A DNA stretch of 43,511 nt from a virus. Its lineage: Duplodnaviria; Heunggongvirae; Uroviricota; Caudoviricetes. Positions 1,356 to 42,786 of the stretch are shown piece after piece. A program made the position numbers and the translations under genes. The stretch's first letter is position 1. Each line of letters begins with the position of its first letter. The stretch is taken from the IMG/VR virus record IMGVR_UViG_2529292919_000025, one strand, 5' to 3'. The notes under the pieces are model-generated. The model made no database searches. It worked only from the letters and a program-made list of their open reading frames with translations, and was not told where the DNA came from.

Positions 1356-2321
1356 ATGAACGACTCTCATGAAACAACAGTGGTGCATAGAAATTTATGG
1401 CAGGAATCAGGTATTCCACCTTTGGACTACTGCACGATAGAGCGAGCATCAAAATTATTAAATTGTGAAATTGATGATATATGGCATTGGAAAGATAGAC
1501 TACATATAGACTTTTATGTCTATGCTGACTTTCTTGATTTCATTGAATCTGATGCCACCATCCACTTCAAAAAAGATGCTAATTTTATAACTGATTTATT
1601 ACTTATGTACCCAGAAGAAGTAAGGTTTACATTTCCTTTTCTTATTACCAGCGCAAGCAACGAAGTTTATATCCCAGCATCTGAAAGCGGTGCTTATGAG
1701 CTATTTTATGCACATAAACCACTGACAGTTGAAGACAGCGACAATAAAAATGTTTTTGAACAAATTGGCAAAAACTCTTTTATTGTAAGAAAATCAATTG
1801 CATGTGGATTGTTGCGTGTACGCGGTAGAACAACACGACATTATCATTCACAAGAATGTGGAGAACCATATGTGCGACTTGAAGCAACATTTGATTGTGA
1901 TCTATATAAATTCAAAATGCAAAGTTCCCAAATTCACCTGAGTAGCCTGTCAGATAAAAACATTTATATAACAAAGGCTGATTTAGAATACCTTCATGAC
2001 GCAAAGGTTAATGGAAGTTTTGACGCAGCTAAGAGCAAAAAACGATACGAAATGGCGGTAGAACAGGAACTAATACCTGAAATAAAAAATAGCAACCATA
2101 ATGCCGAGAGACATGCTGAAAACAGGGAAAAACTTTTCAAATCTGCAATATATCTTTTGTCAAAGTATCCTGATGAATGCCGTGGCAAAAAGAAAGAAAT
2201 AAGCCCTGAGAAGTGGCGGGATTGCATAGTGGCTCATAAAGACGAAATTCCACCGTTAGCAATCACAAATGAAGATGTGATTTTGAGACACTTACGTGCT
2301 GCCGCCAACGGTAAGGGGTAG
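1356..2321 (+). CDS. Hypothetical protein; AT-rich orphan island cargo gene, no recognisable motif
   Basis: 321-aa ORF, SD-like AAGGTG 5 nt upstream of ATG; visibly AT-rich compared with both flanks; stop codon TAG (2319-2321) abuts the prophage end; its probable terminator is found at 40131-40160 beyond the prophage. Confidence 0.6.
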   Translation: MNDSHETTVVHRNLWQESGIPPLDYCTIERASKLLNCEIDDIWHWKDRLHIDFYVYADFLDFIESDATIHFKKDANFITDLLLMYPEEVRFTFPFLITSASNEVYIPASESGAYELFYAHKPLTVEDSDNKNVFEQIGKNSFIVRKSIACGLLRVRGRTTRHYHSQECGEPYVRLEATFDCDLYKFKMQSSQIHLSSLSDKNIYITKADLEYLHDAKVNGSFDAAKSKKRYEMAVEQELIPEIKNSNHNAERHAENREKLFKSAIYLLSKYPDECRGKKKEISPEKWRDCIVAHKDEIPPLAITNEDVILRHLRAAANGKG

Positions 2322-2324
2322 AGT
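2319..2324. repeat. Left copy of prophage target-site duplication TAGAG(T)
   Basis: TAGAGT at 2319-2324 is identical to 40112-40117 immediately outside the other prophage end; 5-bp Mu-type duplication plus one ambiguous base. Confidence 0.55.
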
Positions 2325-2372
2325 TGATGCGCCGCGCGATAAATGCACTCTATCTTGTGCGATAAATGGCAT
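2325..2372. repeat. Prophage terminal inverted repeat, invertase-side end, with two transposase-binding-like motifs
   Basis: TGATGCGCCGCGCGATAAATGCAC...TGTGCGATAAATGGCA; the CGATAAATG motif occurs twice 23 bp apart; inverted counterpart at 40064-40111. Confidence 0.6.
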
Positions 2373-3029: not shown

Positions 3030-3055
3030 GAGAGATAAACGTTGGTTTGGGGGAA
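3030..3055. other. hix/gix-like crossover site d (outer site; invertase-proximal half degenerate)
   Basis: GAGAGATAAACG-TT-GGTTTGGGGGAA; right half identical to site c. Confidence 0.55.
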
Positions 3056-3580
3056 GGCTCTGCGTTGCCCGTTGGTGTACCCGTTCCGTGGCCCTCAGCT
3101 ACACCGCCAACGGGCTGGCTGAAATGTAACGGCGCAGCATTTTCTTCTGAAGATTACCCCAAACTGGCACAGGCTTACCCCGCGAATAAATTACCGGATC
3201 TACGGGGTGAATTTATCCGTGGCTGGGATGATGGACGCGGCTTGGATGCTGGGCGTGCCTTGCTAAGTCTTCAGGATGACTCTTTTGAAGCGCACAGGCA
3301 TGAGTCCTTTTTTTATGCGGGTATTTCACGTAATGAAACCCCATTAAAAAATCTTCCAAGTTCAGACGAGATGCTGACTTTAAGTTCCACAACTAATGCC
3401 TTGTCCCCGGACGGTATTGATGCCACCAACTCGTTAATTGGTAATGACGATTACAACTGTCTTATCGAAGGGAATAAAAATAACAAACGAACAGCGACAA
3501 GACTGAGTACCAGTATTGTCGGCACAGCAGAAACACGCCCCCGCAACGTTGCATTCAATTACATCGTAAGAGCCGCATGA
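3047..3580 (+). CDS. Silent tail-fibre C-terminal cassette A (no in-frame ATG; expressed only after inversion)
   Basis: Begins with the shared GEGSALPVGVPVPWPSATPPTGWLKCNGAAFS segment and ends with the shared ETRPRNVAFNYIVRAA; track start is a TTG inside the crossover site. Confidence 0.6.
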   Translation: MGEGSALPVGVPVPWPSATPPTGWLKCNGAAFSSEDYPKLAQAYPANKLPDLRGEFIRGWDDGRGLDAGRALLSLQDDSFEAHRHESFFYAGISRNETPLKNLPSSDEMLTLSSTTNALSPDGIDATNSLIGNDDYNCLIEGNKNNKRTATRLSTSIVGTAETRPRNVAFNYIVRAA

Positions 3581-3599
3581 AAACGTTGGTTTGGGGGAA
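3574..3599. other. hix/gix-like crossover site c
   Basis: CGCATGAAAACG-TT-GGTTTGGGGGAA; exact reverse complement of site b (5135-5160). Confidence 0.6.
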
Positions 3600-4067
3600 G
3601 GCTCTGCACTGCCCGTTGGTGTGCCTGTTCCATGGCCCTCAGCCACACCACCAACGGGCTGGCTGAAATGTAACGGTGCAGCATTTTCTTCTGAAATGTA
3701 CCCCAATCTGGCAAAGGCCTACCCCACCAATAAATTACCGGATTTACGCGGTGAATTTATCCGTGGCTGGGATGATGGGCGAGGAATTGATGCGGCACGC
3801 GCTTTATTGAGCATTCAAAACGGGATGTTGGAAAAACACCGCCATATTGTTGTAGCTAACGATGGATATGACACAAAAGATGAATGGGAGTTGGCTACGA
3901 TTTTCAAAAAAACATATACACAAGGCAGGGGGCTTGATGCCACAAATACAGGAGGGAGTTTGATTCCATCACCAACGCTTCATTCACGAGGAAGTATTGG
4001 TAACACAGGTGGTAGTGAAACCCGCCCCCGCAATATTGCATTTAACTATATCGTGAGGGCGGCTTAG
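3591..4067 (+). CDS. Silent tail-fibre C-terminal cassette B
   Basis: Same conserved N- and C-terminal boundary segments as cassette A, different middle; no ATG start. Confidence 0.6.
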   Translation: MGEGSALPVGVPVPWPSATPPTGWLKCNGAAFSSEMYPNLAKAYPTNKLPDLRGEFIRGWDDGRGIDAARALLSIQNGMLEKHRHIVVANDGYDTKDEWELATIFKKTYTQGRGLDATNTGGSLIPSPTLHSRGSIGNTGGSETRPRNIAFNYIVRAA

Positions 4068-4073
4068 TTATAT

Positions 4074-4685
4074 TCAACTGGCTGCTGCCAGTGGTATTTC
4101 CGGCAAGTTGATATCTGGTACCATGTTTATATCCATTGCGTTCAGCGCGTCTATATAATCCAGCACGGCATTAAGCCGGGTGGTTTCTGCCTGCGTCAAC
4201 TTCCGCCCGGCCTGCAACTTCAACTGAATCAGACTTATGGAAGCCATTGCCGCATCAGCCAGTGACTGGCGCTTGGTTTCTGCCGCTTCTACTGCGGCAC
4301 GATGTTGTGCCTCAGTATCTGTCACCCATTTTTCACCATCCCATTTATCGTATGGTGTTAACGGGGCGATAGTGGTTGTAGTTTTCGGGTAGTCACCCAG
4401 CGCCGTGATTTCTTCGGTGTTTCCCGTGTCAGTGCTATAGACGGTTTCACCACGATGGTCTGGCGCATACTCCCATGAACTTAAATTCTCCGAACGGCGG
4501 ATAGCATAGCCCGCTTTATGTGCGCCCGGGGCATCTAAACAGGAATTTGCCGGAATACCGACACCCACAGCAAGATATTCAGTTGATTCGGAAATATATT
4601 CCCGTGTCTCACCATCATAGTTATAAACGACGATGTTTCCTGCCTGTACGGCAATAAGGTCATCATTTAATATCGCGTTATTCAT
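4074..4685 (-). CDS. Tail-fibre assembly protein (Tfa/U-like chaperone)
   Basis: 203 aa; start ATG overlaps the stop of cassette C (TAATG); typical Tfa-like sequence and position after a tail-fibre C-terminal segment. Confidence 0.75.
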   Translation of the reverse strand: MNNAILNDDLIAVQAGNIVVYNYDGETREYISESTEYLAVGVGIPANSCLDAPGAHKAGYAIRRSENLSSWEYAPDHRGETVYSTDTGNTEEITALGDYPKTTTTIAPLTPYDKWDGEKWVTDTEAQHRAAVEAAETKRQSLADAAMASISLIQLKLQAGRKLTQAETTRLNAVLDYIDALNAMDINMVPDINLPEIPLAAAS

Positions 4686-5143
4686 TATGCGGTTCTCACA
4701 ATATAATTGAAGGCAATATTGCGTGGGCGGTTTTCATTCCCATCTGAGGATTCCGTTCTGTATTGACTGGTAAATCTACCGTTAATTGCACCTTGCCGGA
4801 CGGCGTTATCTGTCGACAACAGACTATCCCCTCTTTTGTCATTTGGCACCAGTACCGTGTTATCCCACGCATCCCATGACCGAATATTATGATAATGACT
4901 TCCTGTTAACCACCCCTGCATGCTTAAGATGCCCCTTCCGGCATCCACCCCGCGCCCATCATCCCAGCCACGGATAAACTCACCGCGTAAATCAGGTAAT
5001 TTTAACGTTGGGTAAACCTTTGCCAGATTTGGGTACATTTCAGAAGAAAATGCTGCACCGTTACATTTCAGCCAGCCCGTTGGTGGTGTGGCTGAGGGCC
5101 ATGGAACAGGCACACCAACGGGCAGTGCAGAGCCTTCCCCCAA
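4685..5143 (-). CDS. Silent tail-fibre C-terminal cassette C (translationally coupled to the assembly gene)
   Basis: Shared N-terminal GEGSALPVG... and C-terminal RPRNIAFNYIVRTA; lies directly downstream of the expressed fibre gene on the same strand. Confidence 0.6.
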   Translation of the reverse strand: MGEGSALPVGVPVPWPSATPPTGWLKCNGAAFSSEMYPNLAKVYPTLKLPDLRGEFIRGWDDGRGVDAGRGILSMQGWLTGSHYHNIRSWDAWDNTVLVPNDKRGDSLLSTDNAVRQGAINGRFTSQYRTESSDGNENRPRNIAFNYIVRTA

Positions 5144-5160
5144 ACCAACGTTTTCATGCG
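5135..5160. other. hix/gix-like crossover site b
   Basis: TTCCCCCAAACC-AA-CGTTTTCATGCG; resembles hixL/gix consensus as I recall it (TTCTTGAAAACCAAGGTTTTTGATAA). Confidence 0.6.
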
Positions 5161-6650
5161 GCTCTTACGATGTAATTAAATGCAACGTTGCGAGGGCGAG
5201 TTTCTGTACCTACATTTCCACTAATTTCACCAAACCGTTTTACATTACGAGAGCTAATGGCTCGTAGTGAGGAAGGCACATTAAGACCGGGTTCGTCCGT
5301 TTTAACTATTCCCCCGTCACCGTATGTAGCCAGTATTCCTGGGTTTACTCCTTCCCGTGCACTTCCTGCGGCGAGTCCGTCCCCTGTCCATAATTCCATA
5401 TAGTGTGCATGGTCCAAAATTGTGTGTGGCTGCCAATTAAGCAAAGCGCGACCAGTATCAATCCCGCGACCGTCATCCCAGCCACGAATAAATTCACCGC
5501 GTAAATCAGGCAATTTATTGGTCGGGTAAGCCTTTGCCAGTTCCGGGTATTCTTCAGCAGAAAAAGCCGCACCGTTGCATTTCAGCCACCCCGTTGGCGG
5601 CGTGGCTGAAGGCCATGGAACGGGCACACCAACGGGCAGCGCCGAGCCTTCCCCTAAACCAAGGTAATTGAGGACTTCTTTTATACTGCCCATAGCGATA
5701 ATAGCGCGACCAATAGCTGTAAGGGTTGTCAGTGCTGCGCGGTCTGCTCCGGTAAAATAAGGCAACCGATCTGCTGCAGTGGCAAGTCCTGCCAGAGCAG
5801 TGAGCGTGGCATCTGCCGGTTGTTTTCCGTTTGCCAGATCGTATGCAGCCTTGACCGCTTTCGGTGTGGCGGCCAGTATTTCAGACGTGCTGTTGATGTC
5901 ACTGCTCAATTGTACGGTGCCTTTTGCCGTCAGCGAGGCAGCAGGCACTCCCGTTATCTGACTCCACGGGTGAGTGTGGCTGACGGGCGCCTTGCCGGCT
6001 GCAAGGTCGTATGCAGCCTTGACCGCCTTCGGTGTGGCGGCCAGTATTTCAGATTGACTGTCCGTGGCGCTGCTCAGTTGTACGGTGCCTTTTGCCGTCA
6101 GTGAAGCCGCAGGCACTCCCGTTATCTGACTCCACGGGTGAGTGTGGCTGGCAGGCGCCTTGCCGGCTGCAAGGTCGTATGCAGCCTTGACCGCCTTCGG
6201 CGTGGCAGCCTCAGTTTCTGATTGACTGTCCGTGGCGCTGCTCAGTTGTACGGTGCCTTTTGCCGTCAGCGAGGCAGCAGGCACTCCCGTTATCTGACTC
6301 CACGGGTGAGTATGGCTGACGGGGGCCTTGCCGGCAGCCAGGTCATATGCAGCCTTGACGGCCTTTGGTGTGGCGGCCAGCGTTTCAGAGGTGCTGTTGG
6401 TGGCACTGCTCAGTTGGGTGAACCCCTTAGCTGTCAGTGTCGCGTCCGGGTGGTTACGGGAACGTACGTGTTCAGCCAGTGACTGTGCGGCTTCCTCCGT
6501 TTTTTTCTTCAGCCATTTCGTCCTGTTTGCCAGTTGCCGGGGGGCTCGATTTGATATCCCGTCTGCACCACCCAGAACCGGATCTGATGTCTCCAGTTGA
6601 TAGATATTTTCTTCCCACTTTTCTGTTTCATTCAGGTTTCCCATAATCAA
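5154..6650 (-). CDS. Tail fibre protein (constant N-terminal part fused to currently expressed cassette D)
   Basis: 498 aa; N-terminal tail-fibre anchor region, 56-aa shaft repeats, then ...NYLGLGEGSALPVG crossover segment and a variable C-terminus ending ETRPRNVAFNYIVRAA. Confidence 0.85.
   Translation of the reverse strand: MIMGNLNETEKWEENIYQLETSDPVLGGADGISNRAPRQLANRTKWLKKKTEEAAQSLAEHVRSRNHPDATLTAKGFTQLSSATNSTSETLAATPKAVKAAYDLAAGKAPVSHTHPWSQITGVPAASLTAKGTVQLSSATDSQSETEAATPKAVKAAYDLAAGKAPASHTHPWSQITGVPAASLTAKGTVQLSSATDSQSEILAATPKAVKAAYDLAAGKAPVSHTHPWSQITGVPAASLTAKGTVQLSSDINSTSEILAATPKAVKAAYDLANGKQPADATLTALAGLATAADRLPYFTGADRAALTTLTAIGRAIIAMGSIKEVLNYLGLGEGSALPVGVPVPWPSATPPTGWLKCNGAAFSAEEYPELAKAYPTNKLPDLRGEFIRGWDDGRGIDTGRALLNWQPHTILDHAHYMELWTGDGLAAGSAREGVNPGILATYGDGGIVKTDEPGLNVPSSLRAISSRNVKRFGEISGNVGTETRPRNVAFNYIVRAA
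5649..5674. other. hix/gix-like crossover site a (inside the expressed fibre gene; fibre-constant-side half degenerate)
   Basis: TTCCCCTAAACC-AA-GGTAATTGAGGA; left half matches site b; encodes the LGLGEG junction. Confidence 0.55.
5811..6443. repeat. Tandem ~168-bp coding repeats (about 3.5 copies) in the tail-fibre shaft
   Basis: Protein repeat TAKGTVQLSSATDSQSE..ATPKAVKAAYDLAAGKAP.SHTHPWSQITGVPAASL recurs; accounts for the repetitive antisense ORFs at 5820-6482. Confidence 0.6.
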
Positions 6651-29828: not shown

Positions 29829-30018
29829 TCCCTAAACCACATTAACAGAAATCCCGCCATCCCTGCCGCATCATGAAAGAACGACCAGCCCGGCACCCGA
29901 AAGCCGGGCTGGTCATCGCCCCACAGGAATGCGCTGTGAGCCGACCAAGGTTCAGTCAGTCTCGCGAGACCTGACCAGACTGCCATATTTTTTAATAATT
30001 GTAAAAGGCTTACAGATT

Positions 30019-30783
30019 ATGAAAATGCAGACATTACCCATCGTGCCGTGGATTGGTGGCAAACGCCGCCTTGCAAAACACATTCTGCCGCTGTTTCCGG
30101 CGCATGAATGTTATGTGGAGCCGTTTTGTGGGGCAGCAGCGCTCTATTTTCTTAAGACACCCGGCAAGATCGAAGTCATCAATGATATCAACGGTGAACT
30201 GGTGAATCTGTACCGGGTGGTAAAGCATCACCTGGAAGAATTTGTCCGCCAGTTCAAATGGGCGCTGGTCAGCCGTCAGATCTACAAATGGCTGCAGATC
30301 ACCCCGGAAGAAACACTGACGGATATCCAGCGTGCGGCACGGTTCTACTACCTTCAGAAGCAGGCGTTTGGCGGCAAGGTGGCAGAGCACAGCTTCGGTA
30401 CCTCCACCACATCCCCGCCACGCTTCAACCTGCTGCGTATTGAAGAAGAACTGTCAGCGGCACACCTGCGGCTTTCCAGAACAGTCATAGAACACATGGA
30501 CTGGCAACAGTGCATTGAGCGTTATGATCGTCCGCACACGCTGTTCTACTGCGACCCACCGTACCTGGGTACGGAAGGCTATGGTGTGGATTTTCCTGAA
30601 GGGAACTACTCGCGGCTGGCAGAGCTGGCCCGGTGCATCAGAGGAAAAATGATAATTTCGGTGAACGACATCCCGCAGATGCGCGAGGTGTTCACTGGAC
30701 TGAACATACAGACAGTGAATATCAACTACAGTCTGGCGGGTAAACCCACGCCGCGCCGTGAACTGCTAATCTGCAACTTCTGA
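30019..30783 (+). CDS. Orphan DNA adenine methyltransferase (Dam-like, DPPY motif)
   Basis: N-terminal VPWIGGKRRL, FxGxAA (EPFCGAAA) and catalytic DPPY (FYCDPPYLGTEG); no adjacent restriction endonuclease gene visible. Confidence 0.8.
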   Translation: MKMQTLPIVPWIGGKRRLAKHILPLFPAHECYVEPFCGAAALYFLKTPGKIEVINDINGELVNLYRVVKHHLEEFVRQFKWALVSRQIYKWLQITPEETLTDIQRAARFYYLQKQAFGGKVAEHSFGTSTTSPPRFNLLRIEEELSAAHLRLSRTVIEHMDWQQCIERYDRPHTLFYCDPPYLGTEGYGVDFPEGNYSRLAELARCIRGKMIISVNDIPQMREVFTGLNIQTVNINYSLAGKPTPRRELLICNF

Positions 30784-34942: not shown

Positions 34943-36109
34943 ATGCTGGTACTGAAGCAGCAACTGAAAGAGGCCCGTATTCCACAGGCGGTGGTGGCGA
35001 GAGCTGTCGATGTTTCTGAGGCCACGCTGGCCCAGATTGTGAATCATAACGCGTGGCCCCGCACCAGCCCCGGAGAAGTGCGCCGGCGTCTTGCGTCCTG
35101 GCTGGAAAGTCAGGGGATTGATACAGCGAAGAGTTTTGATGCTGTACAGGGCGCGGCCACGCCCCGTACAGCGGGTACCACAGATAAAACGAGCCTCAGT
35201 GAGGAAGAGAATATGTTACTCAAAAAACAGGTGTTATTTCCAGCAACCAAAAAAGCGTTTGGTCTTTTCCGTGACCCGTTCGCCGACGAAGCCATGCAGG
35301 GTTCTGATGATGTGTTCACCACACCAGACATTCGCTACGTGCGTGAGGCGTTGTACCAGACAGCCCGTCATGGTGGGTTTATGGCCGTCATCGGTGAGTC
35401 CGGTGCGGGTAAATCCACGCTGCGCCGTGACCTGACTGAACGTATCAACCGCGAGAATGCGCCGGTAATTGTTATCGAGCCATACATCATTGCCATGGAA
35501 GACAACGATGTGAAAGGGAAAACCCTGAAGGCAGCAGCTATTGCCGAAGCCATTATCAGTACCATCGCGCCACTGGAAAGCATCAGACGCAGTCAGGACG
35601 CCCGCTTTCGCCAGTTGCATCGCGTCCTGAAAGACAGCAGCCAGGCGGGGTTCAGCCACGTTCTGGTGATTGAGGAGGCCCACAGTCTGCCCATTCCGAC
35701 ACTGAAACACCTCAAACGCTTTTTTGAGCTGGAGTCCGGTTTCAAAAAACTGCTGTCCATCGTGCTGATTGGCCAGCCGGAACTGGCGACAAAACTGTCT
35801 GAACGCAACATGGAAGTCCGCGAAGTCGTTCAGCGCTGTGAGGTGGTCGAACTTCTGCCTCTGGACAATCACCTTGAAGAATTTCTGACGTTCAAACTGC
35901 AACGGGCCGGTAAACAACTGACGGACATTATGGACGCCAGCGCAGTGGATGCCATACGTACCCGCCTGAGCAATCCGGGAAGTCATCGTAAAAATATGGT
36001 TAGCCTGCTGTATCCGCTGGCCGTCAGTAACCTGGTAATAGCCGCCATGAATCTGGCCGCTGAAATCGGGGTTCCACAGGTCAACGCTGACGTTGTCAAA
36101 GGGGTTTAA
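34943..36109 (+). CDS. MuB-like AAA+ ATPase, transposition target-DNA activator
   Basis: Walker A GESGAGKST, Walker B VLVIEEAH; ATG at 34943 preceded by GAGGAGGG; N-terminal HTH-like region. Confidence 0.75.
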   Translation: MLVLKQQLKEARIPQAVVARAVDVSEATLAQIVNHNAWPRTSPGEVRRRLASWLESQGIDTAKSFDAVQGAATPRTAGTTDKTSLSEEENMLLKKQVLFPATKKAFGLFRDPFADEAMQGSDDVFTTPDIRYVREALYQTARHGGFMAVIGESGAGKSTLRRDLTERINRENAPVIVIEPYIIAMEDNDVKGKTLKAAAIAEAIISTIAPLESIRRSQDARFRQLHRVLKDSSQAGFSHVLVIEEAHSLPIPTLKHLKRFFELESGFKKLLSIVLIGQPELATKLSERNMEVREVVQRCEVVELLPLDNHLEEFLTFKLQRAGKQLTDIMDASAVDAIRTRLSNPGSHRKNMVSLLYPLAVSNLVIAAMNLAAEIGVPQVNADVVKGV

Positions 36110-36111
36110 TA

Positions 36112-36381
36112 ATGAAATCCACCACAGGTATCAACCAGCAAATCAGTAAAGTGCAGTCAGCCATTATGGCGCTTAAGGCGACGAACACGGATGTACAAAG
36201 CATCACCATCAGGGGTAACAAACCTGTCATCCGCGTTTCCAGGAGTGCGCATTGCATGCGCATGCTTGAGCAGGGAAAGGCCTGTTATCTGTATACCGGA
36301 CATGACCACAGGGGATATTTCCGTCAGGGCGTTTTCGAACTGCACGGCTGTCGCGTCGTGTGGCCGGAATCTTTGTGGTAA
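36112..36381 (+). CDS. Hypothetical early protein (Mu kil-region position)
   Basis: 89-aa ORF directly after the ATPase gene. Confidence 0.4.
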   Translation: MKSTTGINQQISKVQSAIMALKATNTDVQSITIRGNKPVIRVSRSAHCMRMLEQGKACYLYTGHDHRGYFRQGVFELHGCRVVWPESLW

Positions 36382-36408
36382 TCAGCACAACTGGAGAAAT
36401 CATAAAAA

Positions 36409-36939
36409 ATGGCAAAAAGTACAAAAGGTGCAAAACGTATCAAGGCCGCAGCAGCACTCTGGGTGCCGGGGACACGTGAAGAGGTCATTGAGGGCATCAG
36501 ACTGCTCGGTGACGCACACCGTGAACTGGTCAGGGCTGAAACAGAAATGAATGACGCCATTGGCGATATCACCGCACGTTATGCCCCGCTCACCGAGAGC
36601 CTGAAAAAACGCATGGCCGAACTGCAGTCCGGTATTCAGACATGGTGTGAGGCACACCGTGATGAACTGACCGGCAACGGGAAGGTGAAGTTCGCTAACC
36701 TCACCACCGGCGAGGTGCAGTGGCGAAACCGTCCGCCATCAGTCAGTATCCGTGGGGCGGATAATGTTATTGAATTACTGAGACGTCTGGGGCTTGAGCG
36801 CTTTATCCGTGTAAAGGAGGAAATAAATAAAGACGCTATCCTGAATGAAAAGGACGCCGTGAAAAATATTCCCGGTATTACCATAAAAAGTGATATTGAG
36901 GATTTTTCAATAATTCCTTTTGAGCAGGATGTGCAGTAA
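36409..36939 (+). CDS. gam: Gam-like host-nuclease inhibitor (DNA-end binding protein)
   Basis: 176 aa with Mu Gam-like sequence character (coiled-coil N-terminus, Ku-like core); SD GGAG upstream. Confidence 0.7.
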   Translation: MAKSTKGAKRIKAAAALWVPGTREEVIEGIRLLGDAHRELVRAETEMNDAIGDITARYAPLTESLKKRMAELQSGIQTWCEAHRDELTGNGKVKFANLTTGEVQWRNRPPSVSIRGADNVIELLRRLGLERFIRVKEEINKDAILNEKDAVKNIPGITIKSDIEDFSIIPFEQDVQ

Positions 36940-37036
36940 ACACACCACGTTAATTATTTAATAAAAACATTTTCTTTTTTATTCCGGCGTCAGCGCCGTG
37001 GGCTTCTGCACGCCGGAAACAGAGGAGAATTAAATT

Positions 37037-37231
37037 ATGATATTTAAATGTATTCAGTGCGAGAGGGATATAACAGCCCTGCGTTTTCACAGCGCCATCG
37101 CCGTGATGTCCGGTAAGTACCACGTACCTGCAGTACGTGTCACCCTGGTCTGCCCGTACTGCAGCCAGCATTTTTCGGCAGACGTGCCCGTCATGGAATT
37201 CTCCCGCCCTGACAGGGAGGACTCGCAATGA
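37037..37231 (+). CDS. Zinc-ribbon small protein
   Basis: 64 aa with CIQC...CPYC pair of CxxC motifs. Confidence 0.5.
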   Translation: MIFKCIQCERDITALRFHSAIAVMSGKYHVPAVRVTLVCPYCSQHFSADVPVMEFSRPDREDSQ

Positions 37232-37500
37232 TTACCCCACAGGAAGCACGACAGCGCACCCGAACCCTTGTTGAACACTATGTCAACGAGTGTGAATGCC
37301 GCGACCTCACCGATGTGAAGCACGTCCTGACGGCGCTAATCAGCATGACCGCTCAGGCCATTGTGGCGACCAACGGAAAGGCGGCTGCCCTGCAGGTACT
37401 GGTGAACACACTCACCCACACGGCAGAGCATGAGGTGTCGTACCGGATGGAAACCACTGCAGAAGGCGGCCTGCACATCACCGTCAGCCGGAAGCACTGA
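37228..37500 (+). CDS. Hypothetical early protein
   Basis: 90 aa, 4-nt overlap with upstream gene. Confidence 0.45.
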   Translation: MITPQEARQRTRTLVEHYVNECECRDLTDVKHVLTALISMTAQAIVATNGKAAALQVLVNTLTHTAEHEVSYRMETTAEGGLHITVSRKH

Positions 37501-37509
37501 GGGCGCGGC

Positions 37510-37806
37510 ATGACACGGAACACCATACTCACCCGCACCGCCCTCTACCGTCTGGCCCTGCAGCGTTTCGGGCCGGACGCACAGGCCCTGAAACTGACAG
37601 AAGAGGCCGCAGAACTGGCGGCCAGTGCTGCCCGCAATCTGAACGGACAGGGCAGCGAAAGTGACCTCGCGGCAGAGCTGGCAGACGTGGAAATCATGAC
37701 AGAGCAATTGCGCCTTCAGGGGATGGACCGGCTGATTGACTTCCACAAACAGAAAAAACTGGAACGTCTGGCTGCACGACTGGGCGTGATTTACACGAAC
37801 GAGTAA
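37510..37806 (+). CDS. MazG-like nucleotide pyrophosphohydrolase domain protein
   Basis: 98 aa; EEAAELAAS and ELADVEIMTEQL acidic helix motifs typical of all-alpha NTP pyrophosphatases. Confidence 0.55.
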   Translation: MTRNTILTRTALYRLALQRFGPDAQALKLTEEAAELAASAARNLNGQGSESDLAAELADVEIMTEQLRLQGMDRLIDFHKQKKLERLAARLGVIYTNE

Positions 37807-37820
37807 CCGGGAGGCATTCA

Positions 37821-38036
37821 ATGGCTGACATACTCAGGGAAATCACCGCATGGACACTGATTCTTACTGGCCTGGCGACATGCCTCAGTGCGGGGGCAGC
37901 CCTGGCTGCCCTGCTGATGCACATAACAACACAGTGGTTATGGGAAAAGCTTAAAGCAGCATACAGCCTGAAAGAGCTGTCCGACGCTGTCCGGGCATGG
38001 AAACGGCAGAAAAATACCGGAGATACAGAACAATGA
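37821..38036 (+). CDS. Small membrane protein
   Basis: 71 aa with hydrophobic helix WTLILTGLATCLSAGAALAALLM. Confidence 0.4.
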   Translation: MADILREITAWTLILTGLATCLSAGAALAALLMHITTQWLWEKLKAAYSLKELSDAVRAWKRQKNTGDTEQ

Positions 38037-38716
38037 CAGACCAGAATAAACACATTGAGAAACTGAAAAAGTTGCTGGCGCTGGCCGCATCCGGCAACCC
38101 GCACGAGGCCGCTCTGGCACTGCGCCGAGCCCGTAAACTGATGGATGTTCACGGCATCACACATTCCGACATTGCTATGAGTGATATTGATGAAACCATC
38201 AGTCATTACTGGCCGACAGGCAGTCTCCGTCCACCGCGCTACATGCTGGGCCTGATGAACATCATCCGCGAGGCATTTGGTGTTAACTCCATCATTCACC
38301 CCGGCACGCATCCGTCTGTGGGGTTCTACGGTAACCGGGAACGAGCGGCACTGGCTGCGTACACCTGGGAAGTGCTGGTCCGCCAACTGAAAAAGGCGCG
38401 TCAGCAGTATATCAGCGCACAGAACAAAAGAATAAAAAACGCCACCCGTACCAGCCGTGGAAACCAGTTTGCTGAAGGCTGGGTACTGGCCGTTATCAGT
38501 GAAATACAGTCCTTTGCCCTGACCGATGATGAGCGTGAACTGATGCAACAGTGGCTGGAACATAAATACCCGCAAACGCAAACCACCAGGGCGCGTAAAC
38601 CGGGAAGAAGCCGCAATGGCGACGCCTCGCGCTATGCGGGGTTTCGTGAAGGGCAGAACGTCAGACTGCACCGCCCGGTCAGTGGGCAGGAACAACAGAA
38701 ACTGGAGGCCAGATGA
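38033..38716 (+). CDS. Hypothetical early protein (conserved phage N-terminal helical domain)
   Basis: ATG at 38033 (MTDQNKHIEKLKKLLALA...); track ORF starts earlier at 37997. Confidence 0.5.
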   Translation: MTDQNKHIEKLKKLLALAASGNPHEAALALRRARKLMDVHGITHSDIAMSDIDETISHYWPTGSLRPPRYMLGLMNIIREAFGVNSIIHPGTHPSVGFYGNRERAALAAYTWEVLVRQLKKARQQYISAQNKRIKNATRTSRGNQFAEGWVLAVISEIQSFALTDDERELMQQWLEHKYPQTQTTRARKPGRSRNGDASRYAGFREGQNVRLHRPVSGQEQQKLEAR

Positions 38717-38943
38717 TTACGCTATCAGGTAACAGCCGGAAATTAAAAGCCTGCCGAATATCTGCCAGATACCTTTTTGCCCGCGCCTTTTTTAAGAACG
38801 TCAGGCCGGGGATCACAATTGGTGTTATTGCCGGACGCGAACAGGTTGAAAAATACATGTCAGGTGCATGGTGGAATAACGACCCTGTCATTGCTGCCCG
38901 TAATATTCATATCAGTTGGGGGGATATTCAGAATGACGGCTGA
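38713..38943 (+). CDS. Hypothetical small protein
   Basis: 76 aa, start overlaps upstream stop. Confidence 0.35.
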   Translation: MITLSGNSRKLKACRISARYLFARAFFKNVRPGITIGVIAGREQVEKYMSGAWWNNDPVIAARNIHISWGDIQNDG

Positions 38944-39148
38944 ATCTGTTGTATGTGCCCTGTTCTGGTATTGTTTTGTCGGTTGGTGTACTGCTGAACT
39001 GCACCGCCGTTCAGGGTTTTATTCACGTTACAGTGGTGCCGGCTACTGGATTAGCTGGTCGGTGATGTTCCTGTGCTGGCCTGTGGCGCTTCCTTTATAT
39101 GTCGATTATATCGGTGGCGCAGGTAAAAGGAGCAACGATGATGACTAA
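38933..39148 (+). CDS. Small membrane protein; start trimmed to internal ATG
   Basis: ATG at 38933 (MTAESVVCALFWYCFVGW...), two hydrophobic segments; track ORF 38777-39148 overlaps the previous gene in another frame. Confidence 0.4.
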   Translation: MTAESVVCALFWYCFVGWCTAELHRRSGFYSRYSGAGYWISWSVMFLCWPVALPLYVDYIGGAGKRSNDDD

Positions 39149-39590
39149 ACAACGTCTTATCCAGCTCATTCATATTGCCCGTAATGAACTGGGTATGGAT
39201 GAAGACACCTACCGCCAGATGTTACAGGGGCTGACCGGTAAAGCCTCAACCAAAGGAATGGATACCACACAACTAAACTGCGTGCTGGAATCCATGAAAA
39301 GGAAAGGCTTTCGCGTTAAGCCTGCCGGAAAAGCCAGCTCAGGTTTACCGCTGGATAACCATCCGCAGTCCAGGAAAATCCGTGCGCTATGGCTTGAAAT
39401 GGCTGCTGCCGGCATTGTTCGTGACCGTTCAGAAAATGCATTAGCGCGGTGGATCAAGCGGGAAACGGGCATCAGCGCCCTGCGCTGGCTCAATACTGAA
39501 CAGGCAAGCAGTGTTATTGAGAAACTGAAGAAGTGGCAGCACAGAGCTGCGGGAGTAAAACATGAGCGACCTGAATCAGTTTCGAAGTAA
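39138..39590 (+). CDS. gemA: GemA-like protein (Mu gp16 family)
   Basis: ATG at 39138 preceded by AAAGGAG; GemA-like sequence and position immediately before Mor. Confidence 0.6.
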   Translation: MMTKQRLIQLIHIARNELGMDEDTYRQMLQGLTGKASTKGMDTTQLNCVLESMKRKGFRVKPAGKASSGLPLDNHPQSRKIRALWLEMAAAGIVRDRSENALARWIKRETGISALRWLNTEQASSVIEKLKKWQHRAAGVKHERPESVSK

Positions 39591-39951
39591 AGGGCCGGAA
39601 CTCCTGGTGGAACTGGCACAGCATACCTCTGAGACCGTTCGCGAGATTATTGATATTGAGCCCGCAATTGCCGACCAGATTGGTCAGGCCGTCGCGAACC
39701 GCATGATGCAGGTCTGGGGCGGGCAAAACGTTTATTTCCCGATGGGCATGGTATGGAAGGTCAGTCAGCGCGACCGGGAAATCTTCAGGGAGTTTAACGG
39801 ACGTAACCACCATGAACTGGCCCGCAAATTTGGTGTTTCGCTTCAGTGGGTCTACAGCGTGGTTAAGCGGGTAAGAAAAGAAGAACTGGATCGGATGCAG
39901 GGCAAGCTATTTGCTGATGAACCCGATGTAGATACGGAGAAAAAAGAGTAA
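39562..39951 (+). CDS. mor: Mor/C-family transcription activator
   Basis: 129 aa with C-terminal HTH ELARKFGVSLQWVYSVVKR; last gene before the prophage end. Confidence 0.7.
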   Translation: MSDLNQFRSKGPELLVELAQHTSETVREIIDIEPAIADQIGQAVANRMMQVWGGQNVYFPMGMVWKVSQRDREIFREFNGRNHHELARKFGVSLQWVYSVVKRVRKEELDRMQGKLFADEPDVDTEKKE

Positions 39952-39980: not shown

Positions 39981-40117
<137 letters not shown>

Positions 40118-40130
40118 TAGCTAACTATTC

Positions 40131-40160
40131 AGGCACAGTATCATTACTGTGCCTTTTTAT
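40131..40160 (+). terminator. Rho-independent terminator, probably of the orphan island gene 1356-2321 displaced by the prophage
   Basis: GGCACAGTA-tcat-TACTGTGCC followed by TTTTTATT; lies 20 nt past the orphan gene's stop in the reconstructed empty site. Confidence 0.6.
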
Positions 40161-40265: not shown

Positions 40266-41837
40266 TTACTGAGAGCTCAGATCAACTTTCCAGGGCAACA
40301 GATCGCGTACCCGGTTTGCCGGCCAGTCCTGGATATGTTCAATGACGTAACGCAGCCACTTTTCTGGCTCCACATTGTTCAGACGGCATGTGCCGATCAG
40401 CGAGTACAACACCGCCGCATGTTCACCACCGCTGTCGGAACCCGCGAACATCCAGTTTTTCCGGCCTACGGCCACTCCCCGTAAGGCGTTCTCTGCGATG
40501 TTGTTGTCGATTTCCACCCAGCCATTACTGCAGTACACGTTCAGTGCATCCCACTGTTTCAGCAGGTATGCGAACGCTTTTGCCGTATCTGAGTGACGCG
40601 ACAGTGTTTTCATCTGTTGCTGTATCCAGTCATACAGTGACTGCATCAGTGGCGCGGCTCTGGCTTTTCTTGCCGCCAGACGCTGTTCTGCTGAACAGCC
40701 CCGGACCTCTGCCTCGATGGCATACAGTTCACCGATACGCTGCAGGGCTTCCGTGGTGATGTAGGTGGGCGCTCTTGCATGCACATCGTGGATTTTTCTC
40801 CGGGCATGAGCCATACACGCGGCTTCCGTTATTCTGCCGGATTCGTATAACGCCCGGTAACCACCGTAAGCATCGGCCTGAAGCACACCGCTGTAACCGG
40901 CCAGGTGATTTTGTGGATGGATACCTTTCCGGTCCGGACTGTACGCGAACCAGACCGCCGGGGGCATCTGTGAACCGGCGTTACGGTCATCACGGACGTA
41001 GACCCACAGCCGGGCTGTCCGGGTTTTACCGCTGCCCGGCTCCTGGACCGGGACGGGGATATCATCAGCATGGACTTTACCGGGCATCAGCACATACTGG
41101 CGCAGGACGTCATACAGCGGCTCCAGCAGTTCAGCAACAGCACCTGTCCAGCGCCCCAGTGTGGCACGGCTCAGCTCCACTCCCTGACGACGGTATATTT
41201 CTGACTGGCGGTATAACGGCAGATGGTCTGCATATTTCCCGGTGACAACATGGGCCAGAAGCCCCGCTCCGGCATAACTGCGTGCAATGGGTTTTGAAGG
41301 TACTGGTGCCTGCACGATATGGTCGCACCGGCAACAGGCCTGTTTCGGACGTTGTGTTTCGATAACCTTAAAGGCGCTGCTGATAAGCTCCAGTTGCTCT
41401 GACACATCACATCCCAGAGAACTGAGTTCACCACCACAGGCAGGACAGCATTCCTCTTCCGGCCGGATAACCCGGGTTTCACGGGGAAGTGAGGCCGGTA
41501 ACGGTTTACGGGCTGAAGACTGGCGCAGGGCGGATGGCAGTACCGGGTCATATTGCTCACCCAGCGTTTCCGCCATTTCTTCCTGAAGTGCGCTGATTCG
41601 CTCCTGTGCTTCCTGTATCTGCCGTTCGGTTTTTGCACGAAGTTTTTCTGAGCTTTTACCGAACTGCATACGTTGCAGTTTCGCAACCAGCGCCTTCAGC
41701 CGGTTGATTTCGGAAGCATAAGCCGCCACCCGCTGTGAGAGCAGGCGGTTGTATTCAGCCATCTGGCGGATGGTGTCCTGTTGCGTCTGCAACAGTGCCC
41801 GCAGGCGGGCGTTCTCATGAGCAAGTGAGGTGTCCAT
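40266..41837 (-). CDS. tnpC: IS66-family transposase TnpC
   Basis: 523 aa, N-terminal coiled coil/leucine zipper, Cys-rich zinc-finger-like segment, IS66 transposase sequence character. Confidence 0.8.
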
Positions 41838-41856: not shown

Positions 41857-42204
41857 TTATATGCGGATTCCAGCGCGTTCCGTTCGTTTCGGGTGCTTCC
41901 AGTTGATACCTTCAAGAAGCATGGATAACTGAGCCGGAGTAAGGTGCACCTTGCCGTCACGGGTGACTGGCCAGACGAAGCGGCCCCGCTCCAGGCGTTT
42001 GGTGAAGAGGCACAGTCCGTCACTGTCAGCCCACAACACTTTTATCTGGTCACCCCGGCGTCCGCGGAAGATGAACAGGTGTCCGGAGAACGGGTCATCC
42101 TTCAGGACGTTCTGAACTTTTGATGCCAGGCCGTTAAAGCCATTTCGCATATCGGTGATACCTGCAACCAGCCAGATACGCGAACCTGCAGGGAGAGATA
42201 TCAT
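41857..42204 (-). CDS. tnpB: IS66-family TnpB (Orf2)
   Basis: 115 aa with sequence character of IS66 Orf2 proteins. Confidence 0.75.
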   Translation of the reverse strand: MISLPAGSRIWLVAGITDMRNGFNGLASKVQNVLKDDPFSGHLFIFRGRRGDQIKVLWADSDGLCLFTKRLERGRFVWPVTRDGKVHLTPAQLSMLLEGINWKHPKRTERAGIRI

Positions 42205-42366: not shown

Positions 42367-42786
42367 TTATTCCGGCTCCGGCGTTAACGTCACGGGAAGC
42401 AGTGCCGGCATATTTTTTCCGGAAGGCAGCAGGCCACCTTTCCGGTATTGATGGCGCCAGTTGAAGAGCAGGTTATCGTTGATTCCGTTTTCCCGGGCGA
42501 TCTGCGCCACACAGGCTCCGGGCTGCAGTGACTGCTCCACTAAGGCGATTTTAAACTCATAAGGGAAGTTGGGCCGCCGGGGACGTTTTTTTACCACGGG
42601 GGCTTCGGATATAACGGTGCTTTCAGGACGTACGACTGGTACCGTGGAAAATTGTCCGTAAAGGCAGGCATCAAGTTCCTGCTCCGACATGCCTGCGGGC
42701 AAAGGCCACGAAAGGCCAGCTCTCCGAAAGCGCACGAACATACTACAAACTGTTGATTTTGGTACACCCAGGCGACGCCCGGCCAC
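42367..42786 (-). CDS. tnpA: IS66-family TnpA (Orf1); true start uncertain
   Basis: C-terminal RRPNFPYEFKIALVEQSLQPGACVAQIARENGINDNLLFNWR HTH pattern. Confidence 0.6.
   Translation of the reverse strand: MAGRRLGVPKSTVCSMFVRFRRAGLSWPLPAGMSEQELDACLYGQFSTVPVVRPESTVISEAPVVKKRPRRPNFPYEFKIALVEQSLQPGACVAQIARENGINDNLLFNWRHQYRKGGLLPSGKNMPALLPVTLTPEPE

Follow-up and report, generated by a model that had tools for sequence, protein, structure and literature searches.

The early accessory regions of transposable phages are known for host-killing and takeover functions such as Mu Kil and Gam. Which functions does such a region hold in the viral record IMGVR_UViG_2529292919_000025 (IMG/VR), a stretch of 43,511 nucleotides (nt) that is called the window in the following? 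The locus in question, positions 36112–39148, carries nine small genes, g1 to g9. They quite probably represent the early accessory genes of an intact transposable prophage of Escherichia coli, which is 37.8 kb long and of the BcepMu type. The block would be the counterpart of the semi-essential region of phage Mu, would be carried on one early transcript, and would combine Gam (g2) with a MazG-type protein (g5), for which a role in the nucleotide pool is proposed.

Layout of the block and its prophage

The nine open reading frames (ORFs) named in a preliminary description of this DNA were confirmed: they lie tightly packed on the + strand and fill 36112–39148 between a MuB-like ATPase gene and gemA/mor. 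A stretch that is 100% identical occurs in E. coli E-1246, with the same nine coding sequences (CDSs) in RefSeq. Each of the nine proteins has a PHROG match that covers nearly its entire length (E values from 2e-14 to 1e-77). The genes and their boundaries are as follows (aa, amino acids).

34943–36109, + strand: MuB-like ExeA/AAA ATPase gene, upstream boundary, "ExeA family protein" in RefSeq
36112–36381, + strand: g1, 89 aa, RefSeq CDS
36409–36939, + strand: g2 (Gam), 176 aa, RefSeq CDS
37037–37231, + strand: g3, 64 aa, RefSeq CDS
37228–37500, + strand: g4, 90 aa, RefSeq CDS
37510–37806, + strand: g5 (MazG-like), 98 aa, RefSeq CDS
37821–38036, + strand: g6, 71 aa, RefSeq CDS
38033–38716, + strand: g7, the largest gene of the block, 227 aa, RefSeq CDS
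38713–38943, + strand: g8, 76 aa, RefSeq CDS
38933–39148, + strand: g9, 71 aa, RefSeq CDS
39141–39590, + strand: gemA, downstream boundary, PF06252 at 2e-40
39562–39951, + strand: mor, downstream boundary, 54% identity to BcepMu Mor

The earlier gene coordinates were borne out except for two starts. The better start of g7 is 38033 and not 37997, and that of g9 is the ATG at 38933, which replaces a long ORF beginning with TTG at 38777. The genes had also been called mostly overlapping, which is correct for five of the ten junctions between the ATPase gene and gemA: g3/g4, g6/g7, g7/g8, g8/g9, and g9/gemA overlap, and the genes at the remaining junctions are 2 to 97 nt apart. The g3/g4 junction is an ATGA start/stop overlap, and g9 overlaps gemA by 8 nt. 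A Shine-Dalgarno-like motif is found at most starts of the block. Promoter-like and terminator-like sites within the block are about as frequent as expected from shuffled sequence (3 versus 4.0 and 6 versus 4.6, respectively), and none of them is strong. The five overlapping junctions may be translationally coupled via their stop and start codons. A block that is carried on an early transcript would not be expressed in the lysogen and would be switched on by induction or infection.

In comparison with related phages, eight of the nine block genes are under purifying selection, with g4 as the exception. The ratio of nonsynonymous to synonymous substitution rates (dN/dS) is about 0.05–0.25 for g1, g2, g3, g5, g7, g8, and g9 as well as for gemA and mor.

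The surrounding prophage extends from 2325 to 40112 (37,788 bp). Homology to many genomes begins at window position 2323–2325 and ends at 40112–40124, the termini read TGAT...ATCA, and both flanks carry the 6-bp target-site duplication TAGAGT (2319–2324 and 40113–40118). The termini, the flanking duplication, and the limits of homology together identify an intact 37,788-bp transposable prophage, and suggest that the element arrived by transposition and is intact. Repeats resembling GATAAATG lie near both ends. Early genes are located on the + strand and late genes on the − strand. The transposase is of the rve type and the ATPase is ExeA-like; both proteins as well as GemA and Mor resemble those of BcepMu.

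The position of the block had been described as the classic one for host-takeover genes in transposable phages, and it does correspond to the Mu semi-essential early region between B and gemA/mor. The Mu region comprises 14 ORFs that share a transcript with A and B. It is dispensable for growth, reduces the viability of the host, and affects phage yield (PMC3325207). As in Mu, the block follows the transposition genes and precedes gemA/mor on the same strand, consists of small packed ORFs, and includes a true Gam orthologue (62% identity). The small CxxC...CxxC protein g3 is analogous to Mu gp6, without significant similarity. Besides Gam, however, no protein of the block is significantly similar to Mu gp5–gp15, and Mu has neither the MazG-like nor the DUF2786 gene of the block. 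The prophage further differs from Mu in that its early genes are divergent from its late genes, and in that its transposase is rve/Tn552-like and its ATPase ExeA-like, unlike Mu A and B.

These transposase and ATPase types are shared with BcepMu, to which GemA and Mor are 44% and 54% identical, respectively. BcepMu likewise harbors a MazG-type pyrophosphatase gene (gp06) between the ATPase gene and gemA. Its gp07, whose gene immediately follows that of the ATPase, is a weak match to phrog_2041, the family of g1, and its gp05 is a DUF3164 protein of the kind that occupies the Gam slot in relatives of the window's phage. The two phages differ in that gp06 has 145 aa, falls into other PHROGs than g5, and is without detectable similarity to it. 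Moreover, BcepMu has no Gam and carries a gene for HU and a small gene annotated as single-strand-binding (SSB) type instead of g3, g4, and g6–g9.

Of 5426 complete E. coli genomes, 640, or about one in eight, contain the block, with a coverage of at least 80% in 619 and an identity of at least 95% in 624 of the 640 matching genomes (almost all 95–99%). It is also present in the isolated phage PhiKM, which was filed by its depositors under Bcepmuvirus. The finding is thus real but ordinary: a common block of Mu-like prophages that is already annotated in hundreds of genomes. Current understanding is unchanged, and what is filled in is annotation. New details are that g5 is linked to gemA–mor, that DUF3164 can fill the Gam slot, that g4 evolves quickly, that g1 takes the place of Kil, that g7 is a DUF2786/DUF7168 protein, and that the block contains a conserved hairpin. 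Because such regions are known for host-takeover content, the block is a reasonable, though not a special, place for new inhibitors of host or defence functions. The practical gain is a ranked set of targets, namely g5, g4, g1, g7, and the conserved RNA or DNA hairpin. In the literature on DUF2786, HI1482, PhiKM, and transposable phages with MazG, no functional study of these proteins was found.

Gam and the MazG-like protein g5

The protein encoded by g2 had been called Gam-like and is an unambiguous homolog of Mu Gam (61.5% identity over 169 aa, E 3e-72). Its residues 23–169 span positions 1–148 of the 149 positions in the profile PF07352 (E 1e-40; 139.5 bits with a cutoff of 28.3), it matches phrog_491 at 9e-73, and its dN/dS is 0.09. 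By homology, g2 is predicted to resemble Ku and to cap the ends of linear DNA, which protects them from RecBCD-type nucleases. A sister lineage of Salmonella/Citrobacter-type relatives has a gene for a DUF3164 protein of 203 aa instead of Gam, as in BcepMu. Examples are found at 5110–5721 of locus L089 and 3673–4293 of locus L136, both encoding proteins of about 205 aa like BcepMu gp05. The slot is thus exchangeable, since either Gam or DUF3164 is found in it, and the two proteins, which are unrelated, may accomplish the same step in different ways.

The MazG-like call was made for g5, and g5 is indeed a relative of the MazG-type all-alpha nucleoside triphosphate (NTP) pyrophosphohydrolases. 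The two strings on which the call was based, EEAAELAAS and ELADVEIMTEQL, were located in the protein. The superfamily is characterized by the motif EExxE followed, after a spacer of about 12–28 residues, by ExxD, and g5 carries EExxE(x20)ExxD as E31-E32-A-A-E35 ... E56-L-A-D59. Loss of the catalytic acidic residues had been named as the observation that would speak against the call; the residues are instead conserved across relatives, which supports membership in the superfamily. None of E31, E32, E56, and D59 varies among 22 close relatives. In a set of 69 distant relatives, no variation is seen at E31 and D59, and conservation is at least 90% at E32, E35, and E56.

Family searches point in the same direction. 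g5 matches phrog_2245 ("nucleoside triphosphate pyrophosphohydrolase") at 3e-34, and it was given the name "NTP pyrophosphohydrolase family protein" in more recent PGAP runs. A profile built from the 22 relatives matches 10,186 cluster representatives at E<=1e-3, most of which have 90–110 aa, and the Pfam family MazG (PF03819) is matched by 17 of the 69 distant relatives at E<=0.01. The profile of the distant family reaches the Bacillus MazG structure 5ie9 at E 0.0065, with the motif residues aligned to the catalytic EE..E/E..D residues, and also matches iMazG, YpjD, and SSO3215. The matches of the family profile to MazG-type structures are marginal throughout (E 0.0065–0.16). The profile of close relatives found nothing relevant in the Protein Data Bank (PDB), and only the broad profile reached MazG structures, weakly. 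No match to NCBIfam was found for g5. The best Foldseek match of the predicted structure is DCTPP1 (E 0.17, probability 0.93). The fold matches are weak and enriched in the superfamily, with iMazG, BcMazG, AF1178, HisE, YpjD, and EcMazG within the top 44. The confidence of the model dips at residues 70–80, where a fourth helix would begin.

With about 100 residues, an all-helical predicted structure, and an acidic motif that aligns, g5 resembles the small enzymes Bacillus MazG (5ie9), iMazG (2q73/2q5z), YpjD (2gta), and DCTPP1. By sequence, g5 alone matches none of them, and the similarity of its family profile is marginal. By homology, g5 would be a small MazG-type enzyme, in which Mg2+ held by the acidic residues supports the cleavage of an NTP-like substrate to a monophosphate and pyrophosphate.

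Some relatives of g5 are longer, with about 70 additional aa that make up a C-terminal domain (P0012 and P0031, 169 aa; L109 5986–6483, 165 aa; P0036, 166 aa). The P0036 cluster, with seven member sequences, was called as a g3-like zinc ribbon fused to a MazG-like domain, and this call probably reflects the loss of g4 or a frameshift.

The genomic context of g5 was surveyed in 80 viral contigs that encode a relative. In 75 of these 80 loci, gemA lies downstream on the same strand, in most cases together with mor, and the junction between the g5 relative and gemA–mor often consists of overlapping stop and start codons. The linkage holds at 41–52% g5 identity, where the other genes of the block are replaced, except sometimes Gam. 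In L136, with a 53%-identical g5 relative, the order is transposase, AAA ATPase (AAA_22), DUF3164, small ORFs, MazG-like protein, GemA, and Mor. More distant relatives (37–48% identity) occur in non-Mu phages. There, they lie within modules for replication or early functions, with a PolA gene alongside or an integrase gene nearby. When g5 was compared with 50,697 GenBank phage records by tblastn, relatives were found in only five, none of them from Pectobacterium phages, and no similarity outside the g5 subfamily was detected. By contrast, they are common in the viral contigs of IMG/VR, and nearly all known members of the g5 subfamily come from prophages and metagenomes.

Strong purifying selection on g5 (dN/dS 0.12–0.2) together with its genomic context suggests that g5 acts as an enzyme whose role is conserved and connected with early functions or replication. 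Most likely, g5 would adjust or clean the pool of nucleotides while replicative transposition proceeds in a burst, with non-canonical deoxynucleoside triphosphates (dNTPs), a canonical dNTP, or guanosine tetra- and pentaphosphate ((p)ppGpp) as possible substrates. Such a role would explain why g5 is kept beside gemA–mor and, in other phages, beside replication genes.

Several observations weigh against this reading of the block and of g5. g5 alone reaches no Pfam gathering score for MazG, MazG-like, or PRA-PH; its best match, PRA-PH, has 14.5 bits with a cutoff of 21.3 (E 0.047). A PDB search with the single sequence returned only chance matches, for example IWS1 and EsrB. The AlphaFold model is all-helical with an only moderate predicted local distance difference test score (pLDDT 79), and no Foldseek match reaches E<=0.001. 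Mu has no MazG-like gene, so that replicative transposition in itself does not depend on the enzyme. No similarity between g5 and BcepMu gp06 was detected by BLASTP, hhalign, or hmmsearch with filters off, and their shared position could therefore reflect independent acquisition. Regarding the block as a whole, the long early transcript, which would carry all nine genes and also make the transposase and the MuB-like ATPase, is read from the layout only, and six of the nine proteins are without an assignable function. Orthology of g5 and gp06 is not claimed; the two belong to the same superfamily and occupy the same position.

Alternative roles of g5 and the rapid change of g4

The preliminary description considered that g5 could hydrolyse nucleotide signals or alarmones and that the block could serve host takeover and counter-defence. 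Nothing in the sequence supports either the hydrolysis of such nucleotides or counter-defence, and the precedent for both is a single protein, Atd1. Atd1 is a MazG-like pyrophosphatase of the Pectobacterium phage PcCB7V that hydrolyses ppGpp and protects against TIR-STING and retron-TIR toxicity through (p)ppGpp depletion (bioRxiv 10.1101/2022.06.09.495361). By analogy, g5 could be a dedicated counter-defence enzyme that blocks abortive infection by depleting (p)ppGpp or by hydrolysing immune nucleotides, such as chain-terminating 3′-deoxy-3′,4′-didehydro-NTPs (ddhNTPs) or signalling nucleotides, with g4 and the small proteins as further anti-defence factors. Like Atd1, g5 is phage-encoded and has the full catalytic motif of a MazG-like domain. 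The block is a variable, cassette-like region that would be expressed early, and g4 shows an excess of nonsynonymous changes as in an arms race. However, similarity of g5 to Atd1 was not demonstrated beyond membership in the superfamily, and PcCB7V is absent from the five GenBank phage records with a tblastn-detectable g5 relative. Atd1 also sits beside phage nucleotidyltransferase genes, unlike g5 in its Mu-like operon. g5 is slow-evolving and widely conserved, which is more typical of a metabolic enzyme, and its distant relatives adjoin PolA and other replication or early genes. This context fits a role in the nucleotide pool at least as well as counter-defence. No PADLOC defence model was matched by any of the nine proteins, and the g4 signal may be plain relaxed constraint, as its ratio of 0.51 lies below 1. 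A dedicated counter-defence enzyme is hence considered unlikely. A wider version was given a still smaller share of belief and is distinctly improbable: g5 as a conserved enzyme for immune evasion or host physiology, which transposable phages would use to remove (p)ppGpp or defence-made nucleotides for replicative transposition, with g4 as an inhibitor that diversifies against a variable defence or target of the host. The persistent linkage to gemA–mor, often with overlapping codons, and the scores below the Pfam thresholds could also be taken to mean that g5 is a catalytically irrelevant helical partner, structural or regulatory, of GemA/Mor in the switch to middle transcription, its resemblance to MazG being a relic. 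The acidic metal-binding residues are, however, invariant down to 32–40% identity, which is unexpected for a relic; relatives of g5 occur in phages without detected GemA or Mor, and Mu has GemA and Mor without such a gene. A mere partner of GemA/Mor is accordingly very improbable.

For the other genes of the block, the opposite doubt arises, namely that some of the small ORFs (g4 in particular, perhaps also g8 and g6) are decaying or spurious frames that are carried along in the operon. g4 occurs in 17 alleles among 23 close loci, with 40.5 nonsynonymous versus 26.5 synonymous changes and a per-site ratio of 0.51, in comparison with 0.05–0.16 for g1, g2, g3, g5, and g7. The difference from the other ten genes pooled is significant in a Fisher test (p 5e-5), a crude count as alleles are not independent. 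Several pairs of alleles differ by six to nine amino-acid changes and a single silent change, and the nonsynonymous/synonymous ratios range from 0.5 to >1 among close relatives. g8 and g6 likewise look relaxed among close relatives, although on small counts (four synonymous versus 11 nonsynonymous and one versus three, respectively). All three genes are missing from many relatives and are without a Pfam domain. On the other hand, g4, g6, and g8 have full-length PHROG families, and their starts keep a Shine-Dalgarno motif or ATGA coupling. g8 is maintained at 67–79% identity with a dN/dS of 0.10–0.25. Among the 23 ungapped full-length matches of g4 in close loci, none carries a frameshift or stop. 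Intact g4 homologs persist at 41–44% protein identity, so that g4 is a real, fast-evolving gene; a non-coding g4, as the high dN/dS might suggest, was rejected in view of these homologs and the lack of any disrupted allele. Spurious frames are therefore a very remote explanation. What acts on g4 is relaxed or diversifying selection, which this count does not separate. g4 matches phrog_3691 at 2e-54, and its chance match far below cutoff was the sole match of the nine proteins in NCBIfam.

Under the preferred reading, in which g5 serves the nucleotide pool and Gam protects DNA ends, g1, g3, g4, g6, g7, g8, and g9 may be exchangeable small cassettes for interaction with the host.

Remaining genes, hairpin, and prophage flanks

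g1 starts 2 nt past the stop codon of the ATPase gene, which is the position of Kil in Mu, where kil starts 18 nt after B. PGAP names the protein "HI_1482 family"; it matches phrog_2041 at E 3e-36 and has a dN/dS of 0.14. BcepMu gp07, in the same position, gives only a weak match to this family (E 0.008). No match of g1 to the Kil PHROGs 2743, 6381, and 2679 was found at E<=0.01. The C-terminal LHGCRVVW of g1 resembles LNGCQIIW of Mu Kil, and the likeness is confined to the motif L-x-G-C-x-[VI]-[VI]-W. A Smith-Waterman alignment of the two proteins scores 40, compared to 23.5 ± 4.4 for shuffles (z 3.8; 0.5% of the shuffles score as high). The alignment of the two families by hhalign is not significant, with a probability of 10.6% over 11 C-terminal columns. 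The relatives of Kil in IMG/VR are all 84–100% identical to Mu Kil and are too shallow for a good profile.

The CxxC...CxxC protein of the preliminary description is g3, a putative zinc ribbon. It matches phrog_3401 at 2e-40 and Pfam zinc fingers only below threshold. Both CxxC pairs are kept in a relative with 58% identity, and the dN/dS is 0.08–0.18. Two small membrane proteins had also been proposed. This is well founded for g6, which has a strong hydrophobic segment at residues 12–36 (mean Kyte-Doolittle value 1.98), and probable for g9, whose two aromatic-rich hydrophobic stretches stay below the strict cutoff. g6 matches phrog_3958 at 1e-41 and is cleanly missing from loci L072, L075, L077, L079, and L084, which are otherwise 95–100% identical; it is a predicted single-pass membrane protein on a dispensable cassette. 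g9, probably a membrane protein with two segments, matches phrog_6436 at 2e-14 and has a dN/dS of 0.12–0.15. It exists in two allele types, as close relatives are either 94–100% or roughly 41% identical.

The largest protein of the block, g7, is of a kind widespread in phages and contains DUF2786 (PF10979, 42.9 bits with a cutoff of 23.9, residues 20–56) and DUF7168 (PF23771, 92.6 bits with a cutoff of 25.5, residues 58–201), numbered in the 239-aa ORF from 37997. One or both domains are present in 58 of 58 homologs. The predicted fold begins with an N-terminal helical hairpin that is followed by a KH-like alpha/beta core and further helices. Membership in the KH-domain family was rejected: the GXXG loop is not conserved and Pfam KH is not matched. 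A fold search in BFVD returned only uncharacterised DUF2786/DUF7168 proteins. g8 is a basic protein (11 K+R versus 5 D+E) that matches phrog_3681 at 4e-54 and is present or absent among relatives, being missing from many related loci.

The spacer between Gam and g3 harbors a further conserved element.

36982–37018, + strand: conserved hairpin with a 15-bp core, within the 97-nt Gam–g3 spacer 36940–37036

The spacer folds with a minimum free energy of −29.5 kcal/mol (z −4.3). The core of the hairpin is 98% paired in 15 distinct sequences, which include one compensatory change from C-G to U-A. It is about 95% identical between lineages in which the synonymous divergence (dS) of the flanking genes is saturated, and is kept where DUF3164 replaces Gam. 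The 54 viral contigs with the hairpin have one copy per phage. In the phage type of the window, an outer stem pairs a U-run with the Shine-Dalgarno sequence of g3. No Rfam family matches the hairpin, which may be an element for RNA processing, stability, or translational control, or a DNA site.

Elsewhere in the prophage, a gene for a D12-class N6-adenine DNA methyltransferase lies at 29929–30783, in the leftward part of the early region, and is a candidate anti-restriction function of the phage. Near the left end, the following genes adjoin one another, and the segment 2403–4685 looks like an invertible host-range segment similar to the G segment of Mu.

2403–2975, − strand: Gin/Cin-like serine invertase gene
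3047–3580 and 3591–4067: two alternative tail-fibre C-terminal ORFs with Collar domains, adjoining the invertase gene
4074–4685: tail-fibre assembly gene, beside the alternative tail-fibre ORFs

The features outside of the prophage are listed below.

1–1260, left of the prophage: tyrosine integrase gene
1269–1335, left of the prophage: int-alpA RNA (Rfam RF02996, 60.6 bits), the sole Rfam match at gathering score in the whole window
1356–2321, left of the prophage: ORF of 321 aa without assignment
40131–40154, just right of the prophage end: strong terminator-like hairpin with a 10-bp stem and a T-run
40266–41837, 41857–42204, and 42367–42786, − strand: tnpC, tnpB, and tnpA of an IS66-family element beyond this hairpin

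It seems that an integrative island was the insertion target of the Mu-like phage. In E-1246, lambda-like tail genes take the place of the IS66 element beyond the identical prophage; given this different right flank, the window derives from a different insertion site or strain.

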